From: Colwellia asteriadis
Lineage (GTDB): Bacteria; Pseudomonadota; Gammaproteobacteria; Enterobacterales; Alteromonadaceae
Reading direction: 5' to 3'
Length of the DNA: 40,000 bases
Assembly (NCBI RefSeq): GCF_039523295.1
Contig: NZ_BAAAFA010000009.1
Location: 104,217 to 144,216 of the forward strand
Below are positions 4,605-34,487 of this stretch, piece by piece; the stretch's first letter is position 1, and every line of letters begins with the position of its first letter. A program made the position numbers and the translations under genes. The notes under the pieces were generated by a model. That model ran no database searches, was not told the DNA's origin, and saw only the letters and a list, made by a program, of their open reading frames with translations.

Positions 4605-4898
4605 TGTGAATATTCCCTATCATGTTTAGTAACTTAACTGCGTAAGCTATTAACAACATCGATTAACGTCCGTATTATTATCATTTATCGGTTGTAATCG
4701 AATAATAACCTTTTAATTCATTTACTTGCTAAAGCGTAGTCGAATAAAGTTAAAATACAATGTTTTTAAATAACTTGAGGGAAGGAGAGTGCCTGATAAG
4801 AAGTAATGCGCTGAGTAAGTCGAACTCAGGTTGATCAATAAAGCAGCCATAAAAGCGCGCTATGCAAATAATAAAAAACCGCTGCTATGTTAGTAATT

Positions 4899-5092
4899 AA
4901 CCTGAGCTCGGCTTAACAAATGTTTCTCTAGCAGCTACTTTTCCTAACTTCTTCGTTAAATTTACTTGCAATAGGCTAGCTATTGACGCGAAATTTGCCT
5001 TGAATTAAGAAAAACTATCAAGCTAGAGACTCAGAAAAGTAATTTTTCTGATATTTCAATTTGTTAAATATCTCTTAAACCGAGTTCAGGTT
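4899..5092 (+). mobile_element. MITE-like non-autonomous element, copy 1 (194 bp; 13-bp internal deletion relative to copies 2 and 3)
   Basis: Left end AACCTGAGCTCGGCTTAACAAAT. Reverse complement of the right end is AACCTGAACTCGGTTTAAGAG (16/18 terminal identity). Flanked by direct TAATT (4894-4898) and TAATT (5092-5096). The last T is ambiguous between the TIR and the duplication, so the TSD is 4 or 5 bp. Confidence 0.75.
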
Positions 5093-5147
5093 AATTAAAC
5101 ATGTGAGCGGCTTATTTATTGTTATAAAAATTTATTGCTATAAAAAT

Positions 5148-7322: not shown

Positions 7323-8123
7323 ATGGAAGTTTCTATGCACAGCAAATTTATTACCTATGTCATCACCGCGATAGTATTTATTGTACCGACCACGTTAGCC
7401 CAAGTAGCTATTGCGAATGAAAATGTACCCGCTTTAATCGCAAGCTCTCCTAGTGACAAATTTGATGCGCAAATGCTAAAAGAAGTCGTTGGAAATAAAT
7501 TAGGGCTAAATGTAGTTAAAGTTGAAAAAACACCAATGAATGATTTAGCGGCTATTCATACCGAGCAAGGACTTTTCTATTCTAGTTATAACGGTGAATT
7601 TTTAATTCATGGCAAACTTTATAGCATTAAAAATGAACTGACTGATTTAACCGAGCAAAGCTTAGCTGCTATACGTCTTGAAGGGGTAAAGTCATTTGCT
7701 AATGATGTTATTACGTATCCAGCTAAAGATGAAAAATATGTAGTGACAGTTTTTACTGATATTACTTGTGGTTATTGTCGTAAAATGCACGCTGAAATGG
7801 CTGAGTATAATAAACTCGGTATTACCTTTCGCTATTTAGCTTATCCGCGCTCAGGTATTAACGATCGTTTAGGTAACTTTACCGATGGCTTTAAAGATTT
7901 ACGCTCAGTGTGGTGTAATGATGACTCTGCCGATGCGTTAACACGAGCAAAATCAGGTGCAGGTATTGCTTATAGAATTTGTGATAAGCCTATTGAAGCG
8001 CAATTTAACTTTGGTCGCCAAATTGGTGTTACAGGTACACCAGCAATTATTTTGCCTAACGGTATGATGGTGCCAGGTTACAAGCCGCCAGCACAACTTG
8101 AAGCAATATTAAAAGAAGTTTAA
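7323..8123 (+). CDS. dsbC: Thiol:disulfide interchange protein DsbC
   Basis: Signal peptide, then FTDITCGYCRKMH active site (CGYC) and a ..GVTGTPAIILPNGMMVPGY..P tail as in DsbC. An alternative start at ATG 7335 has a better GGAAG Shine-Dalgarno. Confidence 0.85.
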   Translation: MEVSMHSKFITYVITAIVFIVPTTLAQVAIANENVPALIASSPSDKFDAQMLKEVVGNKLGLNVVKVEKTPMNDLAAIHTEQGLFYSSYNGEFLIHGKLYSIKNELTDLTEQSLAAIRLEGVKSFANDVITYPAKDEKYVVTVFTDITCGYCRKMHAEMAEYNKLGITFRYLAYPRSGINDRLGNFTDGFKDLRSVWCNDDSADALTRAKSGAGIAYRICDKPIEAQFNFGRQIGVTGTPAIILPNGMMVPGYKPPAQLEAILKEV

Positions 8124-8265
8124 TGTAAGAACCTTAATGTAAAGCCTTACATTGAAGTGTCATATAAAAAGCAGTGATCACGATCACTGCTTTTTTGTAA
8201 CTGGCTATTGAGTAAGTTTTTTAAATTACAGTATTTTATAAAAAAGATAAGAAGATTAGTAACCT

Positions 8266-10074
8266 ATGAGTAAAAAAATAATTCGTCGCACACCAGTAGA
8301 CTATAGCCATTTACCTCCTCATCTTCCTGCAATTATTAAACAAGTTTATGCCGCGCGAGCCGTTAAATCAGCAAGCGAACTTGAACTTAAAGTGAATAAC
8401 TTACATGGTGTTACCGAACTTGCTTCATCATTAATGGGTATAAATACTGCCTGTGAATTGCTGTATCAAGCCTTAATCAACAAAACACATATTATTATTG
8501 TGGGTGACTTTGATGCCGATGGTGCTACGAGCACCGCTTTAATGATGACAGCGTTTAACTTATTTGGTAGCACACATCATAACTTTATTGTGCCAAATCG
8601 TTTTGAATACGGTTATGGCTTAACTCCTGAAATAGTTGATATTGCAGCAAGCCAAGGAGCGCAACTGTTAATTACCGTCGATAATGGTATTAGCTGTATT
8701 GCGGGAGTGAAGCGCGCTAAAGACTTGGGAATGCAAGTGATTGTTACCGACCACCATTTACCAGGACATAGCTTGCCTAATGCTGATGCTATTGTTAACC
8801 CTAATCAAGTCGGCTGTACCTTCCCAAGCAAATCGCTTGCTGGTGTCGGTGTCGCTTTTTATGTCATGCTGGCGCTAAGAAAATATTGTCGCGAGCAAAA
8901 TTATTTCAGTGAATATCACATCCCTGAGCCTAATATTGCGCAGTTACTTGATTTAGTTGCCTTAGGTACAGTAGCTGATGTGGTCTCACTTGATGGCAAT
9001 AACCGTATTTTAGTTGAGCAAGGCTTAAAGCGTATAAGAGCAGGGCAAACTCGTCCGGGTATTCAGGCATTGATTGAAATTGCTAATAAAAACCAACAAC
9101 GCTTAGTGGCGAGCGATTTTGGCTTTGCACTCGGCCCAAGAATTAACGCGGCTGGACGTTTAGATGATATGGCTTATGGTATTAACTGTTTACTAGCGAG
9201 TGATTTATCAAGCGCAAGGGTAATGGCGGCAGAGCTTGATGATTTAAATAAAGCACGTCGTGAAATAGAGCAGGGTATGCAAGGTGAGGCTGAACGGGTG
9301 TTAAGTTCACTTAACTTCGATGCGTTTAACTTTAATGAAACGAGCACAGCAAAAGACAATAAAGCTGACTTTCCAAGTGCCATTGCACTGTATCAAAAAG
9401 ATTGGCATCAAGGGGTTATTGGTATTGTTGCCGGGCGTTTAAAAGAAAAATTTCACCGTCCCTGTATTGTTTTTGCCAATGGCAGTGATGATGAAGTCAA
9501 TGATGAGCAGTCGAGAGAAATAAAAGGCTCAGCGCGCTCTATTCCAGGGTTACATATTCGAGATTTATTAGAACATATTGACAGTCAACACCCTGGGCTT
9601 ATTCTGAAATTTGGTGGCCATGCCATGGCGGCAGGTTTATCAATAAAACAGTGTGACTTTACTCGTTTTCAAACTTTATTTGACCAATTAGCTAGTCAAT
9701 GGCTTAAACCTGAAGACTTACAGAGTATTATTTTATCTGACGGCGCTTTGCCGGTTGAAAATTTGAACCTAGACTTTGCTGAATTACTCAGAGATTCAGG
9801 ACCATGGGGACAAAACTTTCCTGAGCCATTATTCGACGATACTTTTACTTTAATTCAGCAGCGCATTGTTGGCGAAAAACATTTGAAAGTTGTGGTGCAA
9901 AAGTCGTCTAACGGAGGGAATCAAGTGTTTGACGGTATTGCTTTTAATATTGATATTAACGCTTGGCCTAATACTCAAGCTACACAAGTGCACTTAGCTT
10001 ATCGACTTGATGTGAATGAATTTAGAGGTAAACGTAGCGTGCAATTAATGATTGAAAATATCACCGCGGTGTAA
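8266..10074 (+). CDS. recJ: Single-stranded-DNA-specific exonuclease RecJ
   Basis: DHH-family motifs GDFDADGATS, DNG, VTDHH and FGGHAMAAG. Length and position downstream of dsbC fit. Confidence 0.92.
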   Translation: MSKKIIRRTPVDYSHLPPHLPAIIKQVYAARAVKSASELELKVNNLHGVTELASSLMGINTACELLYQALINKTHIIIVGDFDADGATSTALMMTAFNLFGSTHHNFIVPNRFEYGYGLTPEIVDIAASQGAQLLITVDNGISCIAGVKRAKDLGMQVIVTDHHLPGHSLPNADAIVNPNQVGCTFPSKSLAGVGVAFYVMLALRKYCREQNYFSEYHIPEPNIAQLLDLVALGTVADVVSLDGNNRILVEQGLKRIRAGQTRPGIQALIEIANKNQQRLVASDFGFALGPRINAAGRLDDMAYGINCLLASDLSSARVMAAELDDLNKARREIEQGMQGEAERVLSSLNFDAFNFNETSTAKDNKADFPSAIALYQKDWHQGVIGIVAGRLKEKFHRPCIVFANGSDDEVNDEQSREIKGSARSIPGLHIRDLLEHIDSQHPGLILKFGGHAMAAGLSIKQCDFTRFQTLFDQLASQWLKPEDLQSIILSDGALPVENLNLDFAELLRDSGPWGQNFPEPLFDDTFTLIQQRIVGEKHLKVVVQKSSNGGNQVFDGIAFNIDINAWPNTQATQVHLAYRLDVNEFRGKRSVQLMIENITAV

Positions 10075-10871: not shown

Positions 10872-13490
10872 TTATTGCTGCCAAACTTCATTGCACTGCC
10901 AGCTATCTATCCATTGCGGTATTTCATTGGCGGGCATCGGCTTGGCAATACCGTAGCCTTGTGCTAAGTCACAACCAAGCTTTAATAATGCTTTACCATG
11001 TTCAATTGTTTCGACACCCTCGGCTATGACGTTACGCTTGAAAGATTTAGCTAAAGCAATAACCCCTTCGACAATTGCCGAATCATCAGGATCGCATAGC
11101 ATATCTCGTACAAAGCTTTGATCTATTTTAATCAGGCTTGCAGGAAGACGTCTCAGGTAAGTTAAAGATGAATACCCGGTACCAAAGTCATCTAACGCAA
11201 AGTTTACGCCTAATTTTATGCACGCATTCATTGTAGCTGAGACATGGCTTATGTCGTCTAGAGCACTTGTTTCAAGCACTTCTAGCTCTAAGAGGTGAGG
11301 CTCAACATCTGGATGGCTTTTCAGTAACTTTATAATGTTTTTAGTGAACTTAGGTTGCTGTAACTGTACAGCAGCAATATTTACACTGATATTGAGCGGG
11401 GGATGAAGCCCCTGTTTTTGCCATTGACTAATTTGTGTTAAAGCTGAATTAATAACCCATTCACCCATTTCAATATTCATAGGGTTGTTTTCAATAATGG
11501 GTAAAAACTCAGCTGGGCTTAATAGCCCTTTTTTCGGATGTTGCCAGCGGATAAGAGCTTCAAAACCAATTACAGTACCAGATCTCATATTCACTTTGGG
11601 CTGATAATGAAGTACAAATTCATTATGATCTAAAGCATGACGAATAGCATTGAGGCCCTCTCGTTGTACTTTTACAGCATCATCTTGAGCTATATCAAAT
11701 AGATGGTGGCGATTTTTACCCCTTTCTTTTGCAATATACATAGCTTGATCAGCATGACGCATGAGTTGATCGGCATCAACGTTATCTTGTGGATAAAGAG
11801 TTACTCCAATGCTAGCGGAAACATTTAAAATGGCACCATTAACCATAACGGGATCCGATGCAGCTAATAAAAGACGCTCTAATATAGGCACGTAATCCAT
11901 TGGGGTAATTTTTTCCGGCAAGTTTGTTAATACAGCTACAAATTCATCTCCGCCAATACGAGCTAAGCTATCACCTTCGCGTAATGATGCTTTCATCAAC
12001 CCCGAAAGAGAAATTAGCAGTTCATCACCGATGTCGTGACCGTAAGCATCATTAATCGCTTTAAAACCGTCTAAATCTAGAAAAACTACAGCAAGAGACT
12101 GCTTTTGACGATTACACTGTAATAGTGCTTGAGATAGGCGATCTGCAAGCAATACCCGGTTGGGTAAATTAGTAAGTACGTCGAAATGTGCTATATGCTC
12201 TAACTGTTTTTGGTATTCTTTCATTGAAGTAATATCATTAGCTAAAATAACATAATGGCTAATTTTATTATGCTCATCACGTACAGCACTAATAGTTTGC
12301 ATTTCTGTATATTTTTTTCCGCTTTTATGACGACTAACTACCTCGCCGATCCAGTAGCCGTTAGCATTAACCTCTTCCCACATCACATCATGAAATTCGG
12401 GCGAATGAACATCAGACATTAAGGACTGTGGTTTTTTTCCTAATACTTCCTCATGATAGTAACCTGATACTTCACTAAACCGAGCATTAACATTAATAAT
12501 ATGATTATTTTCATCAGTAATGATAATACTTTCTCGCGCATGAGAAAATACGCTAGCAGCGAGCTTTAGTTTGTCTTCAGTATGTTTTTTTTCTATAGCA
12601 ATACTAGCTAAACTTGCAGTTTGCTCAATTACGGTAAGGTCTGCTTTGGTTGGTGCATTAATTTCATTATGGTATATAGCAAAAGTACCTAAAACGTCTC
12701 CCTCTGTAGATCTTATTGGCTCTGACCAGCAAGAAGCTAGCCCAGCTTCTTTAGCTAATCCTTTATAAGGCTCCCAATAAGGGTGACTTTCAATATCGTC
12801 TACAATAATACGCTCATTCATGAAAGCTGCTGTACCGCAAGAGCCAACACCGATGCCTATTTCGACGCCATGAATAGCTTCACTATAAAATGTAGGAAGA
12901 CGAGGGGCAGAGCCACTTATTAGATGTTGTCCTGAATTATCTAATAGTAAGATACTACAAATCATCTCAGGGTTATCTTGCTCAACAAGGTGCAAAATTG
13001 CATCAAGAATAATAGCTAGTGGCTTACCACTAGTAATAAGCTCTAATACATGGCGATGAGACTTTTTACGTAATTCGTTTTTTTTACGCTCAGTAATATC
13101 GTGTATGACGCCAATCAGGTAGCGATTACCTAAATTATCGGTGAAGCGACTTTTTCTTGTACTAATTATCTTAACTTGCTCAGCACTAAGGGTAAGTGTT
13201 TCTTCGCATAGAATCTCCTTTCCTTCTTCAAGGACTTTTTTATCAATAGCAAGAAAGTGCTCTCTTTCCGATGGGGGGACTTTTTCAGCTAACGTTTTAC
13301 CTATGATGCCTTTTCTTGATAGCCCAAATAGTTGGCAAAAAGCGTTATTAACTAGTATTAATTTACACTCATTATCTTTTACAAAGATAGGATCTCTTGT
13401 ATTAGTGAGAATTGCATGAAGGTAAAGCTTCGTTTGTTCATTATTTATGAAGGTTAACGTTGACGTATCTTGGCTTTCTTTAAACGTCAT
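10872..13490 (-). CDS. PAS-GAF-PAS-GGDEF-EAL cyclic-di-GMP signalling protein
   Basis: Intact RIGGDEF, EALIRW, DDFGTGYSS, KIDQSF and EGVET motifs. GAF-like central region and two PAS-like segments. Confidence 0.9.
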   Translation of the reverse strand: MTFKESQDTSTLTFINNEQTKLYLHAILTNTRDPIFVKDNECKLILVNNAFCQLFGLSRKGIIGKTLAEKVPPSEREHFLAIDKKVLEEGKEILCEETLTLSAEQVKIISTRKSRFTDNLGNRYLIGVIHDITERKKNELRKKSHRHVLELITSGKPLAIILDAILHLVEQDNPEMICSILLLDNSGQHLISGSAPRLPTFYSEAIHGVEIGIGVGSCGTAAFMNERIIVDDIESHPYWEPYKGLAKEAGLASCWSEPIRSTEGDVLGTFAIYHNEINAPTKADLTVIEQTASLASIAIEKKHTEDKLKLAASVFSHARESIIITDENNHIINVNARFSEVSGYYHEEVLGKKPQSLMSDVHSPEFHDVMWEEVNANGYWIGEVVSRHKSGKKYTEMQTISAVRDEHNKISHYVILANDITSMKEYQKQLEHIAHFDVLTNLPNRVLLADRLSQALLQCNRQKQSLAVVFLDLDGFKAINDAYGHDIGDELLISLSGLMKASLREGDSLARIGGDEFVAVLTNLPEKITPMDYVPILERLLLAASDPVMVNGAILNVSASIGVTLYPQDNVDADQLMRHADQAMYIAKERGKNRHHLFDIAQDDAVKVQREGLNAIRHALDHNEFVLHYQPKVNMRSGTVIGFEALIRWQHPKKGLLSPAEFLPIIENNPMNIEMGEWVINSALTQISQWQKQGLHPPLNISVNIAAVQLQQPKFTKNIIKLLKSHPDVEPHLLELEVLETSALDDISHVSATMNACIKLGVNFALDDFGTGYSSLTYLRRLPASLIKIDQSFVRDMLCDPDDSAIVEGVIALAKSFKRNVIAEGVETIEHGKALLKLGCDLAQGYGIAKPMPANEIPQWIDSWQCNEVWQQ

Positions 13491-13545
13491 TTAGTCTCTT
13501 CCTTGTGAAATAAAATTATAATGTTAAAGCTATTGTTAGGTATAT

Positions 13546-13583
13546 AACCTGAACGCGGTTTAAGAGATATTTAATAAATTGAC
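13546..13583 (-). repeat. Solo right-end fragment of the MITE-like element, inverted orientation
   Basis: AACCTGAACGCGGTTTAAGAGATATTTAATAAATTGAC closely matches the reverse complement of the right end of the full copies. Lies 56 bp upstream of the GGDEF/EAL start codon. Confidence 0.65.
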
Positions 13584-13685
13584 TTAATTTGTTTTATAAA
13601 ACCTATCATTCGTTAGTTTTAAATATAGCAAAGAGATTATTTTATGAAAGTTATATAGCTTATTAGCCCGTATTACTTACTAAAT

Positions 13686-13892
13686 AACCTGAGCTCGGCT
13701 TAACAAATGTTTATCTAGCAGCTACTTTTCCTAACTTCTTCGTTAAATTTACTTGCAATAGGCCAGCTATTGACGCGAAATTTGCCTTGCTTATCATATG
13801 AAAAGAAGAAAAACTATCAAGCTAGAGACTCATAAAAGTAATTTTTACTGATATTTCAATTTGTTAAATATCTCTTAAGCTGAGTTCAGGTT
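13686..13892 (+). mobile_element. MITE-like element, copy 2 (207 bp)
   Basis: Same TIRs as copy 1. Flanked by direct TAAAT (13681-13685) and TAAAT (13892-13896). Internal TTGACG-N16-TATCAT (13770-13797) points rightward. Confidence 0.8.
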
Positions 13893-14194
13893 AAATAATA
13901 ACAGTAATCAGATTTGATGAATTTCGATTTTCATTAAGACGCCTATTTTTAAATCACCGATAATGTCACGATAAGTTTTACATTTACTATTTGATTTTTA
14001 ACGGTTTATTTTTATTTTCGTTCAGTAGTATAAAAATTATATTCTTGCAGAATAAAAGGTGCTACATTCTGCAAATCACGATACTTTCATCGATTATCAC
14101 GAACTCAAAATCCGTCCTACATCAACTGAAAAAATCCTAAAGACTACGTATCGCGATAATAACTTTGGTCTAATTTTTTTAAGGAATATCAAAC

Positions 14195-15640
14195 GTGTAT
14201 AAAACACTTATTGTAGTGGATGATGAATACGTTGCATTGGATAAAGATCGCAGCGATGTGATCAGTTTTGAAAAGTATTTACGTGAGTACCCAAAACTAA
14301 ATGAGCCGAAAACACGTATTATTAATTTATGTGACACCGAACAATACTTAAGCAAAGGTTACTATTGCTCACTATTGGCAGAGGCGCGCAACCATATTGT
14401 GTTACCTAGCGTAAAAACTATTAATGGTTTACGTAATTTAGCGCATGATAGCGATAACTTTGCGGTATTATCACATTTAACTATTGGCCTTAATACGGTT
14501 ACTAATAAACATGTGTTTTTTGGTAAAAGTGATAGCAGTGAGTTAGATAAATTAACAGCAAAAATTTTTGCATTATACCCAGCCCCGTTATTAAATTTAT
14601 CGGTACAACAGCTTAATGGTCAAGCAAATATTACCATTACTCGTATGTCATTTTGTGATCTTGATGAAGCGCAAAAGCAGTGCTTTTTAACACAACTTGA
14701 AGGCTTTAATAAAACCTTATGGCGAATTAATAACAGTCGTAAAAACTATCGTTGGGATATGGCTATATTAGTCGACCATCAAGATAAAGTGCCGCCAAGT
14801 AATAAAGAAGCTATTTCACGTTTTGTAAAAGCCGCGGCCAAATTTGGTATTAACGCCAACGTGGTAAGTATTGATCAAATTGATAATATCGCTCATTACG
14901 ATGCTTTATTTATTCGAGAAACCACTGCGATAGATCACCATACTTATCGTTTAGCACGAAAAGCTGAAGATTTAGGGTTAGTTGTAATAGACGACTCAAC
15001 CTCTATTTTACGCTGTTGTAATAAAGTGTATTTACACGATGCTTTTAATTATAAAAAGGTACGTAGTTTAAAAACTGAAGTGGTTAACAACCAAAGTGTA
15101 GAAACCATTACAGCACTAGAGCAAGCGTTTACTTACCCTGTGGTATTGAAATTGCCTGAAGGCTCTTTCTCTAATGGCGTATTTAAAGCGAAAAATAGGG
15201 AAGAGCTGTCAGCTAAATTAGACGAGCTATTAAAAGTGAGTGCATTGGTATTAGTACAAGAATACTTATATACCGAGTTTGACTGGCGCATTGGCGTATT
15301 AAACGGTAGAGCTATTTATGCTTGTAAATATTTAATGGCGCGCGGACATTGGCAAATTTATAACCACAGCGCTAAACGCTTTTTCTCAGGTGATTTTGAA
15401 ACGCTGCCAACGTTTGAAGTGCCTAAATATGTTTTAGATTCAGCATTACGCGCAGCAAGTGTCGTTGGCACAGGGCTTTATGGCGTAGATATTAAGGCTG
15501 TTGATAATAAAGCCTATGTACTTGAAGTGAATGATAACCCGAGCATAGATTACAAAGTTGAAGATGCCTACCTAAAAGATGAATTATACATGCAAGTTAT
15601 GGCAGAGTTTAATCGTCGCTTAGAAGAGCGTGGTCGATAA
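14195..15640 (+). CDS. RimK-type ATP-grasp amino-acid/peptide ligase with N-terminal RLAN-like domain
   Basis: GTG start with AAGGAA 8 nt upstream. The N-terminus (..YLSKGYYCSLLAEARNHIVLPS..) resembles the RimK-like ATP-grasp N-terminal domain. The C-terminal half has an ATP-grasp layout (..PVVLKLPEGSFSNGV..VLVQEY..DWRIGVLNG..YGVDIK..VLEVNDNPS). Confidence 0.75.
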   Translation: MYKTLIVVDDEYVALDKDRSDVISFEKYLREYPKLNEPKTRIINLCDTEQYLSKGYYCSLLAEARNHIVLPSVKTINGLRNLAHDSDNFAVLSHLTIGLNTVTNKHVFFGKSDSSELDKLTAKIFALYPAPLLNLSVQQLNGQANITITRMSFCDLDEAQKQCFLTQLEGFNKTLWRINNSRKNYRWDMAILVDHQDKVPPSNKEAISRFVKAAAKFGINANVVSIDQIDNIAHYDALFIRETTAIDHHTYRLARKAEDLGLVVIDDSTSILRCCNKVYLHDAFNYKKVRSLKTEVVNNQSVETITALEQAFTYPVVLKLPEGSFSNGVFKAKNREELSAKLDELLKVSALVLVQEYLYTEFDWRIGVLNGRAIYACKYLMARGHWQIYNHSAKRFFSGDFETLPTFEVPKYVLDSALRAASVVGTGLYGVDIKAVDNKAYVLEVNDNPSIDYKVEDAYLKDELYMQVMAEFNRRLEERGR

Positions 15641-15642
15641 TA

Positions 15643-16779
15643 ATGGCTAACACACGGGGCAATGTGCATTACCGTATCGCACAAAGTAGCGATTTAAATG
15701 CTTTAGTCGCTCTAGAGAATAACTGTTTCGAGCAAGACAAATTAAGTAAGCGTAGTTTACAGCATTGGATCAAAGCGCATCACGGTATTTTATTAATCGC
15801 CGAGCGTTATATTGACGCGAGCTCTGAGCTTCAACAGCTTATTGGTTATGGCTTAGTTTGGTGTCATAAAGGTACGCGTTTAGCACGTTTATATTCTTTA
15901 GCGGTAGCGCCAGCGTGTCGAGGACAGCATATTGCCAGCGGTCTTTTAGCGCAACTTGAACAAGAAACGCTAATACGTAACCATTATTTTTTACGCTTAG
16001 AAGTGGCTAAGAACAATGGCGCAGCCATTAAGTTATACCAGGGTTTAGGTTATCGTGTTTTTGGTGAATACAGTGATTATTATGAGGATCACAGTGATGC
16101 TTATCGTATGCAAAAACAGCTATTACGAAAAACACCATCAGACTTTCAAACCATAACACCTTGGTACCAACAAACCACTGAGTTTACCTGTGGTCCAGCC
16201 TCATTAATGATGGCAATGAACAGTTTACATGCTCCAATAGTGATGACGCAGCGTTTAGAATTAGACTTGTGGCGTGAAGCAACCACCATTTTTATGACCT
16301 CAGGTCATGGTGGTTGTCATCCTGTTGGCTTAGGTAACGCTGCTAAAAAGCGAGGTTTTGACGCTAAAGTTTTTATTAACCAGCAAACTCCTTTATTTGT
16401 CGATGGAGTAAGAGCCCCTCATAAAAAGCACATTATGCAAAGTGTCCATCAACAATTTATTGAAGACGCTCAAGCGCTGGCGGTTGATGTGAGGTTTGAT
16501 GATATTAATCAACACCAGCTGGCGAAATTACTCAGTGATGGCTATGCGGTTATTTTATTAATTAGCACCTACCGCTTAGATGGAAAAAAAGCACCGCACT
16601 GGGTTACCGTGACCGGTTTTGATGAATTATGCTTTTATGTGAACGATCCAGACTTAGACGATAAACAGCAGCTACCTATTGATTGCCAATATTTACCAAT
16701 ATCAGGTGATGACTTCGACAAAATGTCGATGTTTGGCGGTGGAAAACTACGTACTGCAGTGGCAATTAAACGATCGTAA
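15643..16779 (+). CDS. Fusion protein: N-terminal GNAT (RimI-like) acetyltransferase and C-terminal C39-like papain-fold cysteine peptidase
   Basis: GNAT acetyl-CoA motif region (..LAVAPACRGQHIASGLL..YQGLGYRV). The C-terminal part has TEFTCGPASLMMAM (candidate catalytic Cys), ..APHWVTVTG (His) and VNDPD (Asp). Start is 2 nt after the ATP-grasp stop. Confidence 0.7.
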   Translation: MANTRGNVHYRIAQSSDLNALVALENNCFEQDKLSKRSLQHWIKAHHGILLIAERYIDASSELQQLIGYGLVWCHKGTRLARLYSLAVAPACRGQHIASGLLAQLEQETLIRNHYFLRLEVAKNNGAAIKLYQGLGYRVFGEYSDYYEDHSDAYRMQKQLLRKTPSDFQTITPWYQQTTEFTCGPASLMMAMNSLHAPIVMTQRLELDLWREATTIFMTSGHGGCHPVGLGNAAKKRGFDAKVFINQQTPLFVDGVRAPHKKHIMQSVHQQFIEDAQALAVDVRFDDINQHQLAKLLSDGYAVILLISTYRLDGKKAPHWVTVTGFDELCFYVNDPDLDDKQQLPIDCQYLPISGDDFDKMSMFGGGKLRTAVAIKRS

Positions 16780-16961
16780 AAGCAGAACATTACCATCGTT
16801 TACATGGCAGCAGCTATTCAATTTATAGCCGTTTATTTACCCCCATATTTACGTTACAATGCGCGACTATTTGCGTTTTGTCGCTTGCCGTATTTTTTGC
16901 GTGGTAATTTAAGTCAGTCAATGGCGTTATTAAATTAGCGTTGACCACGCGCTAGCAACAA

Positions 16962-17007
16962 TCGCTAACATGCCATAACTATTAGGAATGTTAGCGGATA
17001 TTTTTTC
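16962..17007 (+). terminator. Rho-independent terminator candidate after the ATP-grasp/GNAT operon
   Basis: TCGCTAACAT (16962-16971) pairs with ATGTTAGCGA-like (16988-16998), followed by TATTTTTT. Confidence 0.45.
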
Positions 17008-17065
17008 AAAACGTCTATGTAATAAATTGATATAATTACAATAATTTAAAGTATTCAGAAGGCTT

Positions 17066-18164
17066 ATGTTCGAAACTAACCCAGTATTAAGTAAGTTAAA
17101 AGAAATTCGCGAGCGTGCAAACCTGCTTAGGGGGTACCTTTGACTACGATGTTAAAGCCGAGCGCTTAATTGAAGTTACCCGCGAATTAGAATTACCCGA
17201 TGTTTGGAATGAACCAGAAAGAGCGCAAGCGCTAGGAAAAGAGCGTAGCGCGCTTGAAGAAGTCGTAAAAACTATTGTTGAGCTTGAAACAGGCTGTGAA
17301 GATATTGAAGGCTTAGTGGAACTTGCTGTTGAAGAATCTGATCAAGATACTTTTGACGATGCAACAGCTGAAGCCGAAGCGCTTGATGCCGTTTTGGAAA
17401 AATTAGAGTTTCGTCGTATGTTTTCTGGCGAGCAAGACGCCAACAACTGTTATTTAGATATTCAATCAGGATCAGGCGGCACCGAAGCGCAAGACTGGGC
17501 AGAAATGCTGATGCGTATGTATTTACGCTGGGGTGAAGCACATGGTTATAAAACCGAAGCCATTGAAGTTACTGATGGCGATGTTGCTGGCATTAAAGGT
17601 TGTACGATAAAATACACCGGTGAATTTGCTTATGGCTGGTTACGTACTGAAACAGGGGTTCACCGTTTGGTTCGTAAATCACCGTTTGACTCATCTGGTC
17701 GTCGTCATACCTCATTTGCTTCAGCGTTTATTTACCCTGAAATAGATGACAATATTGATATTGACATTAACCCAGCTGATTTACGTACCGATACTTTCCG
17801 TGCTTCAGGTGCTGGTGGTCAGCATGTTAACAAAACAGACTCAGCAATTCGTATTACCCATATTCCAACGGGCGCTGTGGTTGCTTGTCAGGCTGACAGA
17901 TCACAACATAAAAACCGCGCGACTGCGATGAAGTTGCTTAAAGCCAAGCTTTATGAAATGGAAATACAAAAGCAAAACGAAGGCAAACAAGAATTAGAAG
18001 ATGGAAAATCAGATATTGGTTGGGGCAGTCAAATTCGCTCTTACGTACTTGATGATAGCCGTATTAAAGATTTAAGAACGGGTGTTGAAAACAGAAACAC
18101 TCAAGCCGTACTTGACGGTGATTTAGATAAATTTATTGAAGCGAGTTTAAAGTCTGGCTTGTAA
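17066..18164 (+). CDS. prfB: Peptide chain release factor 2, expressed by programmed +1 frameshift (17066..17140 joined to 17142..18164)
   Basis: Frame 0 reads [25 protein letters not shown] then in-frame TGA at 17141. The +1 frame continues DYDVKAERL... through the SPF and GGQ ([11 protein letters not shown]) motifs. Confidence 0.93.
17129..17144 (+). promoter_or_regulatory. prfB autoregulatory +1 frameshift site
   Basis: AGGGGGTACCTTTGAC is an internal Shine-Dalgarno-like AGGGGG, 3 nt, then slippery CTT followed by TGA C. E. coli has AGGGGGUAUCUUUGAC. Confidence 0.9.
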
Positions 18165-20313: not shown

Positions 20314-20793
20314 TTAACTTTGTGTTGAATTCTTGGTCTGATTAATAGCTGATGTAGTTATTAATGCTATGTGTATAAAATTCACTACTATCAATGTAAG
20401 TATTATTTTTAGCCAAATAATTGTTTGGCCTGAAAGCAACATTAATATACATAAGCTAAAAGTGAATAATAAAAATGTGATTGCGGCAGCATATAAGTGA
20501 TAGAAAAGCTTAAGGTAACCAGCATTGCGCCATAATGTAAAGCTAGGGTTGTTTGATACTGAAAGAATATAAGCCCCTATTGCAGCTATGAAACCTGTCA
20601 TAGTCATACTGAATGACGTTAATATGCTAATCAATAAATCAGTATTTTTAGGAACTATGTGAGGAAAGAGTGATACACCAATACATTTAGTTATGATCCA
20701 ATAAATAAAAAGTAAAGCAGGGCTAAGTAATGCAGATATTAACCATATTCCTCTTGCAAATGATTTGATTTCATCATTGGAAAGCTGACGCAT
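20314..20793 (-). CDS. Four-TM small membrane protein, RexB-like (candidate membrane effector)
   Basis: 159 aa with four long hydrophobic segments. The segment ..NFIHIAL.. near the C-terminus and a central ..GY.. loop resemble lambda RexB (144 aa, 4 TM, ..SFIHICIL..) as recalled. ATG lies 2 nt after the upstream stop, with GAAGG upstream. Confidence 0.55.
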   Translation of the reverse strand: MRQLSNDEIKSFARGIWLISALLSPALLFIYWIITKCIGVSLFPHIVPKNTDLLISILTSFSMTMTGFIAAIGAYILSVSNNPSFTLWRNAGYLKLFYHLYAAAITFLLFTFSLCILMLLSGQTIIWLKIILTLIVVNFIHIALITTSAINQTKNSTQS

Positions 20794-20795
20794 GT

Positions 20796-21773
20796 TTAAC
20801 CTTCACTCTCATCAATTAAGTAAGTGTCTTTATTTGAAAGTTTAGACCAATTTGAGCAAGAATGGTCAGTCGTTATCCTGTCACTAACACCTTCAATATA
20901 TGCGTTATAGGCATCTACAATAGACTGATTGGCGTATCTTTTATCTTGAATTTGCATCTCTATAGAAGCTTTCAAATAAGGGTTGATGATGTCAAAAAGT
21001 ATCATCGAATGATCTAAGAAATAATCTTTAATGTTTTCCTGAAGGCTATTTTGTTTTGCCCTAAGGTGTACTTCTGCAAACTCTTTGCCATTAGTATCTG
21101 ATTGTATTAAATCAAGTAGTGGCTTAATGTCTTTTTCAATTCCATTTTTAATGCCAGTACGCTTTACACTGATACTAATTTCTACATTGTTATCAGGTGT
21201 GTTACTTGCTAATAAACCAGACAAAATTCCATTCATACTGGTTTTTCCATTTAGGATTACGTTAGCTTGCGATATTAGCTTCAACTTCCCTACAGATGAC
21301 TTACTAACTTCACTTTGAAGTGGTATTACTTTTAGTTGGTATTTTTTTATATCAGGGCCATATATTCCATTCAATATTTCATTTAAGTAGTATTCAAGAT
21401 CATCTACTGAAGCCCCGCCTAAAGATGAAGTAACACCAATTATAGGTTTACTCTTATCAAAATGGATGTATGTAACTTTTTCTAAACTATCACCGTCTTC
21501 TAAAACTTCATTTAAGTCCTTTATGACACCAGACCCTTTATTAAGAGTTCTATAATTGGCTAAGGACGCAGGTACCATCAAATAGTAAACATCGGGATAA
21601 ATTTCTGCTTTAGCAAAATATAGATTTTTAGATGACTTATCATGATACTTTTCAAGAATTGATTTTTTACTTTGGTGCTTACAATAGACTTCAACAATGT
21701 CAGATATACAAATATTGCAAATTTTGCCAGTGTCTTTAAAGGTTATAGTGTATGCGTAATAATTTAGTTTCAT
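20796..21773 (-). CDS. Soluble 325-aa protein, RexA-like (candidate phage-sensing partner)
   Basis: No TM segment or signal peptide. Several segments are collinear with lambda RexA as recalled: the N-terminus (MKLNYYAY vs MKNGFYAT), IKDLNEVLEDGDSLE vs VEDIKNSLADDESLG, IGV..GGASVDDLEYYL vs IGF..GPTTSDLTDFL, and VHLRAKQ vs ISLRAKD. The DNA is very AT-rich. Confidence 0.55.
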   Translation of the reverse strand: MKLNYYAYTITFKDTGKICNICISDIVEVYCKHQSKKSILEKYHDKSSKNLYFAKAEIYPDVYYLMVPASLANYRTLNKGSGVIKDLNEVLEDGDSLEKVTYIHFDKSKPIIGVTSSLGGASVDDLEYYLNEILNGIYGPDIKKYQLKVIPLQSEVSKSSVGKLKLISQANVILNGKTSMNGILSGLLASNTPDNNVEISISVKRTGIKNGIEKDIKPLLDLIQSDTNGKEFAEVHLRAKQNSLQENIKDYFLDHSMILFDIINPYLKASIEMQIQDKRYANQSIVDAYNAYIEGVSDRITTDHSCSNWSKLSNKDTYLIDESEG

Positions 21774-26760: not shown

Positions 26761-26785
26761 AGTTTTTCTCGTTTTTTGATTAGTT

Positions 26786-26992
26786 AACCTGAGCTCGGCT
26801 TAACAAATGTTTCTCTAGCAGCTATTTTTCCTAACTTCTTCGTTAAATTTACTTGCAATAGGCCAGCTATTGACGCGAAATTTACCTTGCTTATCATATG
26901 AAAAGAAGAAAAACTATCAAGCTAGAGATTCTGAAGAGTAATTTTTTCTTATATTTCAATTTGTTAAGCACTTCTTAAACCGAGTTCAGGTT
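26786..26992 (+). mobile_element. MITE-like element, copy 3 (207 bp)
   Basis: Same TIRs as the other copies. Flanked by direct TAGTT (26781-26785) and TAGTT (26992-26996). Roughly 90% identical to copy 2 by eye. Confidence 0.8.
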
Positions 26993-27025
26993 AGTTAGGG
27001 CACATATATGCCACTACATGGTTAT

Positions 27026-34394: not shown

Positions 34395-34457
34395 GAGCAG
34401 AAAATAATTTTGCTAATATTTAAATTTGTTAAATATCTTTTAAACCGAGTTCAGGTT
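34395..34457 (+). repeat. Solo right-end fragment (~63 bp) of the MITE-like element
   Basis: GAGCAGAAAATAATTTTGCTAATATTTAAATTTGTTAAATATCTTTTAAACCGAGTTCAGGTT aligns with the right third of the full copies. No left end nearby. Confidence 0.7.
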
Positions 34458-34487
34458 AAGTACATTAGTGTTGAGTTAGTAAAGTTA

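Follow-up and report, generated by a model that had tools for sequence, protein, structure and literature searches.

A conserved gene pair of Colwellia asteriadis, encoding an RLAN–ATP-grasp ligase and a GNAT–peptidase fusion, that probably builds, caps and trims a peptide or protein tail

What might a RimK-type ATP-grasp ligase do in one operon with a protein in which a RimI-like acetyltransferase is joined to a cysteine peptidase? The question is raised by two adjacent genes in a 40,000-nt stretch of DNA from Colwellia asteriadis (the whole of which we refer to as the window), and the findings described below indicate that its probable role is to build, cap and trim a short peptide or a protein tail. 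The open reading frame (ORF) listing of the window gives the two genes as follows.

14195..15640 (+): ligase gene, 481 aa, GTG start
15643..16779 (+): fusion gene, 378 aa, ATG start

Both proteins are intact, and each has an exact match at NCBI; the ligase is WP_343818036.1 ('RimK family protein', Colwellia asteriadis, 481 aa) and the fusion is WP_343818037.1 ('GNAT family N-acetyltransferase/peptidase C39 family protein'). The junction between the genes (15638..15645, forward strand) reads CGA TAA TA ATG, that is, a stop codon, 2 nt and a start codon, and the two genes are likely to be translationally coupled. An initial annotation of this DNA had described two tightly coupled genes separated in just this manner, and its coordinates and junction were correct throughout. 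The G+C content of the pair is unremarkable when compared to that of its flanks. As for the GTG start of the ligase gene, a Shine-Dalgarno sequence lies 8 nt upstream of it, in a layout that recurs in L084, the locus of the closest relative (91% and 80% identity).

14178..14197 (+): Shine-Dalgarno sequence AAGGA and GTG start of the ligase gene, matching layout in L084

This start is supported by the Shine-Dalgarno sequence, by the N-terminus MYKTLIVVD that is common to 35 ligase homologues, and by the identical 481-aa protein at NCBI.

The ligase is made up of two parts, each of which is recognized by a Pfam model.

14270..14689 (+): RLAN domain, residues 26-165 (PF14401, E 5.7e-33, 114.1 bits against a cut-off of 25)
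14741..15637 (+): ATP-grasp module, about residues 183-481 (PF08443, RimK, E 1.6e-10, 41.3 bits against a cut-off of 21)

The protein is a member of the family that combines RLAN with a RimK-type ATP-grasp module, and the identical architecture is precomputed for all 120 homologues listed; the hidden Markov model searches thus agree with the initial description of a RimK-type ATP-grasp ligase with an N-terminal RLAN-like domain. The second-best Pfam match is to the C-terminal domain of D-Ala-D-Ala ligase (1.8e-9). In an alignment of 36 sequences, the mean column identity of the ligase is 66% (and the ligase is 62-66% identical across orders), the RLAN domain holds the invariant stretch RxINLC...YLSxGYYCSLLAEARxH..P.VK, and K319 (VLK), Q355, R365 (DWR) and E444/N446 (EVN) of the ATP-grasp module are invariant. 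These five residues, together with the fold as judged by Foldseek, place the protein in the ATP-grasp superfamily. By sequence its best matches in the PDB are RimK structures 5zct and 4iwx, at 7e-9. By structure the best PDB matches are ArgX 3vpb at the top, RimK 5zct, 5zk6 and 7qyr, and LysX 3vpd (E about 1e-16, target-normalized template-modelling (TM) score 0.74-0.80, approximately 300 aligned columns), with Ddl structures also high in the ranking. The AlphaFold2 model on which this comparison rests has a predicted local distance difference test (pLDDT) score of 80.1, with a disordered loop at residues 383-400 where pLDDT is below 50.

The top Foldseek matches of the ligase align with the ATP-grasp module only; nothing in them aligns with the first 180 residues, RLAN among these, and RLAN has no co-aligned solved analogue. 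We entertained the idea that RLAN arose by duplication of the ATP-grasp or pre-ATP-grasp module and then degenerated, and rejected it when an hhalign comparison of the two halves gave a probability of 7.7% over 40 columns. The idea that it is a polymer-anchoring N domain like that of cyanophycin synthetase found no support; among the 50 Foldseek PDB matches listed there is no CphA, and none has more than 357 aligned columns.

The nearest NCBIfam models of the ligase are rimK_fam, LysX, MptN and S6-glutamate ligase, with CofF also listed, and every score is under the curated cut-off. In particular, the ligase scores 38.9 bits against a cut-off of 331 for NF007764 (S6--L-glutamate ligase), 75.6 against 143.4 for TIGR00768 (the RimK subfamily), 60.6 against 275.6 for TIGR02144, and 18 against 569 for TIGR03103 ('N-acetylglutaminylglutamine synthetase'). 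Moreover, the GDFRSNLHRGG stretch of RimK is replaced in the ligase, where it aligns to GHWQIYNHS...SG with a 6-residue insertion, and in the ligase alignment ARxHWQIY(NH) is invariant and family-specific at the site of the RimK GDFRSNLH. The latter stretch contributes to substrate binding in RimK. With this stretch replaced, the amino acid added by the ligase need therefore not be glutamate.

The second gene encodes the following two domains.

15667..16122 (+): RimI-like GNAT domain, residues 9-160 (Acetyltransf_1, TIGR01575, Foldseek)
16156..16770 (+): DUF3335, a C39-like clan-CA cysteine peptidase domain, residues 172-376 (PF11814, E 5.7e-88)

The initial annotation had proposed a RimI-like GNAT fused to a papain-fold, C39-like peptidase, and the matches to Acetyltransf_1 (E 1.6e-11, residues 26-137, 45 bits against a cut-off of 20.7) and DUF3335 agree with it. 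The top Foldseek match of the fusion is E. coli RimI (5isv, E 1.2e-12, target-normalized TM score 0.85), followed by Ard1/Naa10, and the best PDB matches of the GNAT domain by sequence are Naa20, Naa10, Ard1 and RimI. In an alignment of 47 fusion homologues (56-79% identity to the query), E120 (16000-16002) and Y132 (16036-16038) of the GNAT domain are invariant. When the domain is compared to E. coli RimI by BLASTP (37% identity over 67 aa), these two residues align with E103 and Y115, which are 12 residues apart and were reportedly assigned as the catalytic Glu and Tyr of RimI by Vetting et al. (2008). As with the ligase, the scores against the curated models fall short, at 61.4 bits against 86.4 for TIGR01575 (rimI, E 9.6e-17) and 30.1 bits against 173 for NF007025. 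The ligase and the GNAT domain have the same folds as E. coli RimK and RimI, respectively. Judged by sequence, however, neither is an orthologue of its E. coli counterpart, because the curated NCBIfam cut-offs were not reached, and the parallel with the modification of S6 and S18 is an analogy only. (In E. coli, rimK and rimI are not linked to each other, and neither carries a fused peptidase.)

The assignment of the peptidase domain rests on more than its DUF3335 match. Peptidase_C39_2 (PF13529) also matches, with 36.1 bits against a cut-off of 24, and Q177 (16171-16173), C183 (16189-16191), H319 (16597-16599) and D335 (16645-16647) are invariant in the same 47 homologues, their codons having been checked. 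Taken together, the two Pfam matches and the conserved Gln, Cys, His and Asp place the domain in the C39-like clan CA. The candidate Cys/His/Asp triad that had been picked out initially from the motifs TCGPASL, PHWVTV and NDPD corresponds to C183, H319 and D335. Q177 lies 6 residues ahead of C183, and the Gln-6-Cys and His-16-Asp spacings match those of the ComA peptidase domain (Q11/C17/H96/D112). The domain is not a peptidase C39 proper, in that PF03412 has no match in the fusion, and by sequence no solved relative of it was found in the PDB. Note that C330 is also invariant, as is a GHGGxHP loop (residues 222-227, H222-P227; 16306-16323) that lies outside the Gln/Cys/His/Asp set in a region of lower model confidence; this loop is a possible metal site or substrate-binding loop. 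The AlphaFold2 model of the fusion (mean pLDDT 86.9, predicted TM score 0.81) suggests that the two domains are packed against each other in a defined way.

Among 587 representative relatives of DUF3335 at 50% clustering, most are 355-430 aa long and carry the domain in the C-terminal half, which argues that fusion to a GNAT is the main architecture in which DUF3335 occurs. (Tandem DUF3335 stretches without a GNAT are found in P0321, P0330, P0350 and P0357, which are 411-471 aa long.)

Do the ligase and the fusion belong together? A linkage scan in which each species was represented by one genome yielded 80 loci encoding the fusion. The RLAN ligase is present within 8 kb in 62 of these; when only the 57 loci with 3.5 kb or more on each side are counted, the figure is 44. 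In 33 of the 60 loci whose arrangement was classified, the ligase gene directly precedes the fusion gene in the same orientation; a further 5 have a single intervening gene, 12 are divergent, 6 are convergent and 4 are arranged in other ways. Linkage spans the Alteromonadales, Oceanospirillales, Cellvibrionales, Methylococcales and Verrucomicrobiota; the pair is also found in methanotrophs, Verrucomicrobiota and Azospirillum chromids, and plasmid carriage of full-length homologues is confined to megaplasmids or chromids (Azospirillum, Tistrella). In Colwellia echini and Thalassotalea profundi the pair sits in unrelated contexts, having relocated as a unit. Because the linkage survives rearrangement across bacterial orders, there is good evidence that the ligase and the fusion share a function. 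Chance is ruled out by the domain E-values and by homologues in the thousands, more than 6,900 of the fusion having been scored. The domain searches, the co-occurrence of the two genes and the conservation of the catalytic candidates, on which the initial annotation had proposed to stand or fall, all came out in its favour, with the RimK-type, RLAN, GNAT and C39-like/DUF3335 assignments each supported, the pairing seen in several arrangements and the candidate residues invariant.

The 18 of 80 loci in which no ligase lies within 8 kb could be taken to mean that the two genes are mere neighbours without a shared function. We give this idea almost no weight: the linkage is kept in four gene orders across the five groups named above, the spacing at the junction is 2 nt, the pair moves as a unit, and there is a metagenomic ORF with DUF3335 followed by RLAN. 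The last of these is P0311 (409 aa), a single ORF with a partial DUF3335 and then the start of RLAN, which may be a Rosetta-stone fusion with the gene order reversed, or else an artefact of gene calling or a frameshift.

If the two proteins act together, on what do they act, and with which partners? A DUF2817 gene lies directly upstream of the fusion gene in 17 of the 80 loci, often between the ligase and the fusion (carriers include L002, L003, L008, L021, L026, L027, L055, L061, L075 and L080). The DUF2817 protein matches PF10994 at 2.5e-71 and has weak matches to M14, AstE_AspA and MpaA; its only NCBIfam match, to the murein tripeptide amidase MpaA, is at 3.9e-8 and far under the cut-off. 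An M42-like gene is found upstream of the ligase gene in 7 of the 80 loci, MgtC is found downstream of the fusion gene in 12 loci, mainly in Pseudoalteromonas, and DUF155 is found in 9. The window holds no homologue of DUF2817, M42-like, MgtC, DUF155 or GreA-like proteins. Nor did the 80 loci reveal an asparagine-synthase-like gene among the conserved neighbours. A precursor, carrier or target encoded in cis was considered and rejected: among small ORFs of 25-95 aa that lie no more than 2 kb from the pair in the 80 loci, no cluster spans more than 3 closely related genomes, there is no rpsF (S6) gene in the window or the 80 loci, and there is no S18 gene nearby.

These results bear directly on the idea that the pair is a maturation cassette for a RiPP (a peptide made by the ribosome and modified after translation) or bacteriocin, in which the C39-like domain would remove a double-glycine leader, the GNAT would acylate the new N-terminus and the ATP-grasp enzyme would add linkages. 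C39 peptidases are classically leader peptidases, GNAT and C39 proteins are found side by side in clusters for ribosomal lipopeptides, graspetides are made by ATP-grasp ligases, and the DUF3335 domain has the clan-CA fold in common with the C39 domains of bacteriocin systems. The domain described here, however, is cytoplasmic and GNAT-fused, with no leader-peptide gene, with no ATP-binding cassette (ABC) transporter or exporter fused or adjacent to the pair, and with no match to PF03412; the largest cluster of small ORFs comes from 3 closely related genomes, and the ATP-grasp module belongs to the RimK/LysX clade rather than to the graspetide clade. We therefore consider a RiPP cassette very improbable.

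Our preferred reading, to which we assign a probability of roughly 0.42, is that the pair encodes a cytoplasmic module which, independently of the ribosome, produces and turns over a small N-capped peptide. In this scheme the ligase would phosphorylate a terminal carboxylate with ATP and add amino acids singly, the added residue most likely being glutamate or another acidic one, as with every characterized member of its clade. These members (RimK, LysX/ArgX, MptN and CofF) extend a terminal Glu-type carboxylate; MptN and CofF, both among the NCBIfam matches of the ligase, are glutamate ligases for small-molecule tails. The GNAT domain would acetylate the free alpha-amino end, be it that of the chain or that of the residue with which the chain starts, and thereby block aminopeptidases. 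Packed against it, the cysteine peptidase domain would cleave the product and so set its length, recycle it, or stimulate the ligase as RimB does RimK, and in some genomes DUF2817 (M14-like, distantly MpaA-like) and M42/M20-like hydrolases would finish the turnover. What results would be an N-acetyl oligo-acidic peptide. We favour a free N-acetyl oligopeptide because the accessory genes are of exopeptidase and deacylase types, pointing to small peptides or acyl-peptides, because standalone DUF3335 genes lie beside importers (see below), and because no target is encoded in cis. The reading is also supported by the GNAT, which is closest to peptide N-alpha-acetyltransferases, and by the linkage of the two genes. 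RimK makes free poly-alpha-glutamate, the synthesis of which is stimulated by RimB (PMC11957791; PDB title 5zct), and the logic of a GNAT with a RimK-like ligase and a deacylase has tested precedents in the metabolism of N-acetylaspartate (NAA) and N-acetylaspartylglutamate (NAAG), where N-acetyl dipeptides are made (PMC3872778).

Several observations weigh against this reading. The accessory peptidases are missing from the window and from most loci, and no ligase lies within 8 kb of the fusion in 13 of the 57 loci flanked by 3.5 kb or more on each side. Glutamate as the residue added by the ligase is a guess. The GNAT resembles protein N-terminal rather than amino-acid acetyltransferases, which fits a protein target equally well, and ligase conservation of 62-66% across orders is typical also of enzymes that dock on a conserved macromolecule. 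Finally, coenzyme A (CoA) motif A of the GNAT, which is Q/R-x-x-G-x-G/A in the GNAT superfamily and for which the family consensus is RGxGxA, reads RGQHIA here (residues 93-98, 15919-15936) and RGKNIA or RGQNIA in Thalassotalea, such that the central Gly is His or Asn in the Colwellia/Thalassotalea clade. In GNATs, CoA is bound through backbone amides. Judging from these substitutions, members of this clade may have an altered acetyl-CoA site.

Some of the same observations would be expected if the pair were instead a system that writes, caps and erases a protein tail, in which RLAN would dock on the target, the ligase would add Glu C-terminally, the C39-like domain would trim the tail and the GNAT would acetylate the N-terminus of the target or of a partner, in parallel to RimK on S6, trimming by RimB and RimI on S18. 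We regard this as a tentative second possibility. RimK, LysX and ArgX, the nearest solved relatives of the ligase, act on the C-terminal Glu of S6 and LysW; the closest relatives of the GNAT are RimI, Ard1 and Naa10/20; ligase conservation across orders is very high; an additional N-terminal domain is plausible for target recognition; and in the Colwellia clade a divergent GGDEF-EAL neighbour is reminiscent of RimA, an EAL protein. Moreover, M14-type enzymes strip polyglutamate tails in eukaryotes. The combination of a ligase with a dedicated peptidase follows the RimK/RimB logic, which has been experimentally shown (PMC11957791). Against a protein tail, the RimK and RimI equivalog cut-offs were missed (38.9 against 331, 75.6 against 143.4 and 61.4 against 86.4 bits), the GDFRSNLH stretch of RimK is not conserved, there is no candidate target in cis across the 80 loci, the GGDEF-EAL neighbour is limited to the closest relatives, and standalone DUF3335 genes accompany peptide and siderophore importers. 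A more specific form of the idea, which we consider unlikely, is that of a second, RimK-independent, reversible protein-tailing system in marine bacteria, in which RLAN would dock on a conserved protein, possibly a component of translation, the ATP-grasp module would write a tail of amino acids at its C-terminus, and the fusion would both erase the tail with its Cys peptidase and N-acetylate the target. If true, bacteria would have in it their counterpart of the TTLL/CCP tubulin code, with an acetyl mark built in.

The standalone DUF3335 genes just mentioned are annotated as 'peptidase C39 family protein'. One ends a five-gene operon for a peptide-type ABC importer on plasmid pSINME02 of Sinorhizobium meliloti (L081, 6004-6672), and another, placed after the importer genes, ends an operon for an iron-siderophore ABC importer on a Streptomyces plasmid (L082, 5545-6663). 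Their positions hint that the DUF3335 domain acts on imported small peptides. The one next to the peptide importer would also suit a role of the pair in the salvage or remodelling of peptides that are imported or derived from the cell wall, whether murein-type or other D/L-peptides, which the ligase would extend again and the peptidase/acetyltransferase would process. The D-Ala-D-Ala ligase Pfam match (1.8e-9) and the high rank of Ddl by fold point in the same direction, as does MpaA as the NCBIfam match of DUF2817, and papain-fold enzymes often cut gamma-D-Glu bonds. Ddl does not outrank RimK, LysX and ArgX, however; no mur, mpl, amp or ldc genes are linked to the pair; the MpaA match is weak and comes from a gene that is not in the window; and the GNAT is of the N-alpha protein/peptide type. 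We thus view peptide salvage as improbable.

How does the pair compare with known systems? The closest tested system is RimABK of Pseudomonas, which resembles it in that a RimK-type ligase is co-transcribed with a dedicated peptidase. The peptidase of RimABK, RimB, is an aspartic retropepsin, whereas here a clan-CA Cys/His/Asp domain is fused to a GNAT; in addition, the ligase described here has an extra 180-aa RLAN domain and lacks GDFRSNLH, and the system is not of the RimABK type. The pathway to N-acetylglutaminylglutamine amide (NAGGN) is alike in joining a GNAT, an ATP-grasp enzyme and an M42-like hydrolase to make an N-acetyl dipeptide osmolyte, and an M42-like gene is present in 7 of our loci. 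The NAGGN gene trio consists of the bifunctional GNAT/ATP-grasp enzyme Ngg, AsnO and an M42-family hydrolase. The pair does not belong to that trio (TIGR03103/03104/03106), in that no amidotransferase is linked to it and its peptidase domain is a different one. The amino-group carrier system of LysX/ArgX and LysW offers another comparison, and although ArgX 3vpb is the top Foldseek match of the ligase, there is no LysW-like small acidic protein near the pair and the TIGR02144 cut-off was missed. In mammalian NAA/NAAG metabolism the GNAT NAT8L makes the N-acetyl amino acid, the RimK-like ATP-grasp ligases RIMKLA and RIMKLB couple glutamate to it, and an M14-related deacylase, aspartoacylase, carries out degradation (PMC3872778); DUF2817 has weak matches to AstE_AspA and M14. 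This is a likeness of logic only, and the GNAT here is of the RimI/Naa type.

The association of RLAN–ATP-grasp proteins with GNAT–papain-like proteins was reportedly predicted by comparative genomics by Iyer, Abhiman, Burroughs and Aravind in 2009 (Mol Biosyst 5:1636). The families are in Pfam, the proteins are annotated in NCBI and the association has already been noted in the literature; what the window holds is another member. A 2023 classification of papain-like peptidases (PMC10318531) relates DUF3335 to Guanylate_cyc_2 and describes it, citing earlier work, as often GNAT-fused. Our literature searches found no experimental study of this system, and together with the 2023 classification they fit the statement in the initial annotation that the association had been predicted and not experimentally characterized.

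The pair is nonetheless among the more strongly conserved enzyme cassettes of marine Gammaproteobacteria that have no assigned function. Should an N-acetyl acidic peptide be what is made, bacteria would gain a metabolite akin to NAAG or NAGGN, which could serve marine species as osmolyte, storage compound or signal; should a protein tail be the substrate, the pair would be the second reversible polyamino-acid modification system in bacteria, after RimK/RimB. Under either reading, the defined catalytic residues and the minimal two-gene unit make the system open to direct in vitro testing.

Does the surrounding DNA tell us more? The order of genes in the window is dsbC-recJ (7323-10074), UPF0014, a GGDEF-EAL gene on the reverse strand, the pair, prfB and lysS, and in L084 the same order, dsbC-recJ-UPF0014-(GGDEF-EAL)-ligase-fusion, is found. 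The neighbouring features are as follows.

10872-13490 (-): PAS-GAF-PAS-GGDEF-EAL protein, 872 aa, divergent from the ligase operon
13541-13898: miniature inverted-repeat transposable element (MITE)-like element, ending 297 nt before the ligase start
4890-5098 and 26785-26993: further MITE copies, near-full (90% and 93% identity)
34401-34462: further MITE copy, partial
14070..14123 (+): upstream block of 54 nt, 100% identical in L084 with diverging flanks, containing ATCACGA..ATCGAT..ATCACGA, no Rfam match

Adjacency to the GGDEF-EAL gene is kept in L084 and not in other genomes, and the gene is absent from the 80 loci as a conserved cluster. Though it recalls RimA of RimABK, this neighbour is probably coincidental. 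The MITE-like family has a unit of approximately 215 bp with terminal inverted repeats of roughly 38-42 nt. The copy that precedes the ligase gene is a composite one, in which an additional terminal repeat on the left (13541-13582) gives rise to 42-nt arms with 88% complementarity. We rejected the element as a part of the system, since it is missing upstream of the ligase in L084. The recJ-prfB position of the pair is likewise incidental, because the pair sits elsewhere in Colwellia echini and Thalassotalea. Thus, the initial annotation was right to place the operon between recJ and prfB, some 300 bp downstream of a MITE, and neither circumstance turned out to matter to the system.

The 54-nt block upstream of the ligase gene may be a promoter, an operator or a leader. 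A 9-bp inverted repeat, TTGCAGAAT/ATTCTGCAA (14045-14074), was considered as an operator and rejected, as it is not kept in the closest relative. A search of 13400-17200 against Rfam returned no match at E up to 1, and hence no riboswitch or known leader RNA, and there is no intrinsic terminator-like site within or after the pair. Membership in a defence system was also rejected, in that no family of PADLOC-DB matched either protein at E up to 0.01.

Two further features of the window lie downstream of the pair. Immediately after lysS there is a RexA/RexB-like abortive-infection pair on the reverse strand (20314-21773), in which RexA is matched by PF15969 (1.7e-16) and by PADLOC RexA (5.4e-15) and the 159-aa partner is matched by PADLOC RexB (5e-11). 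The prfB gene (17067-18164, forward strand) carries a canonical programmed +1 frameshift site, CTTAGGGGGTACCTTTGAC, around 17122-17145; the ORF listing shows its downstream frame only, from 17115.

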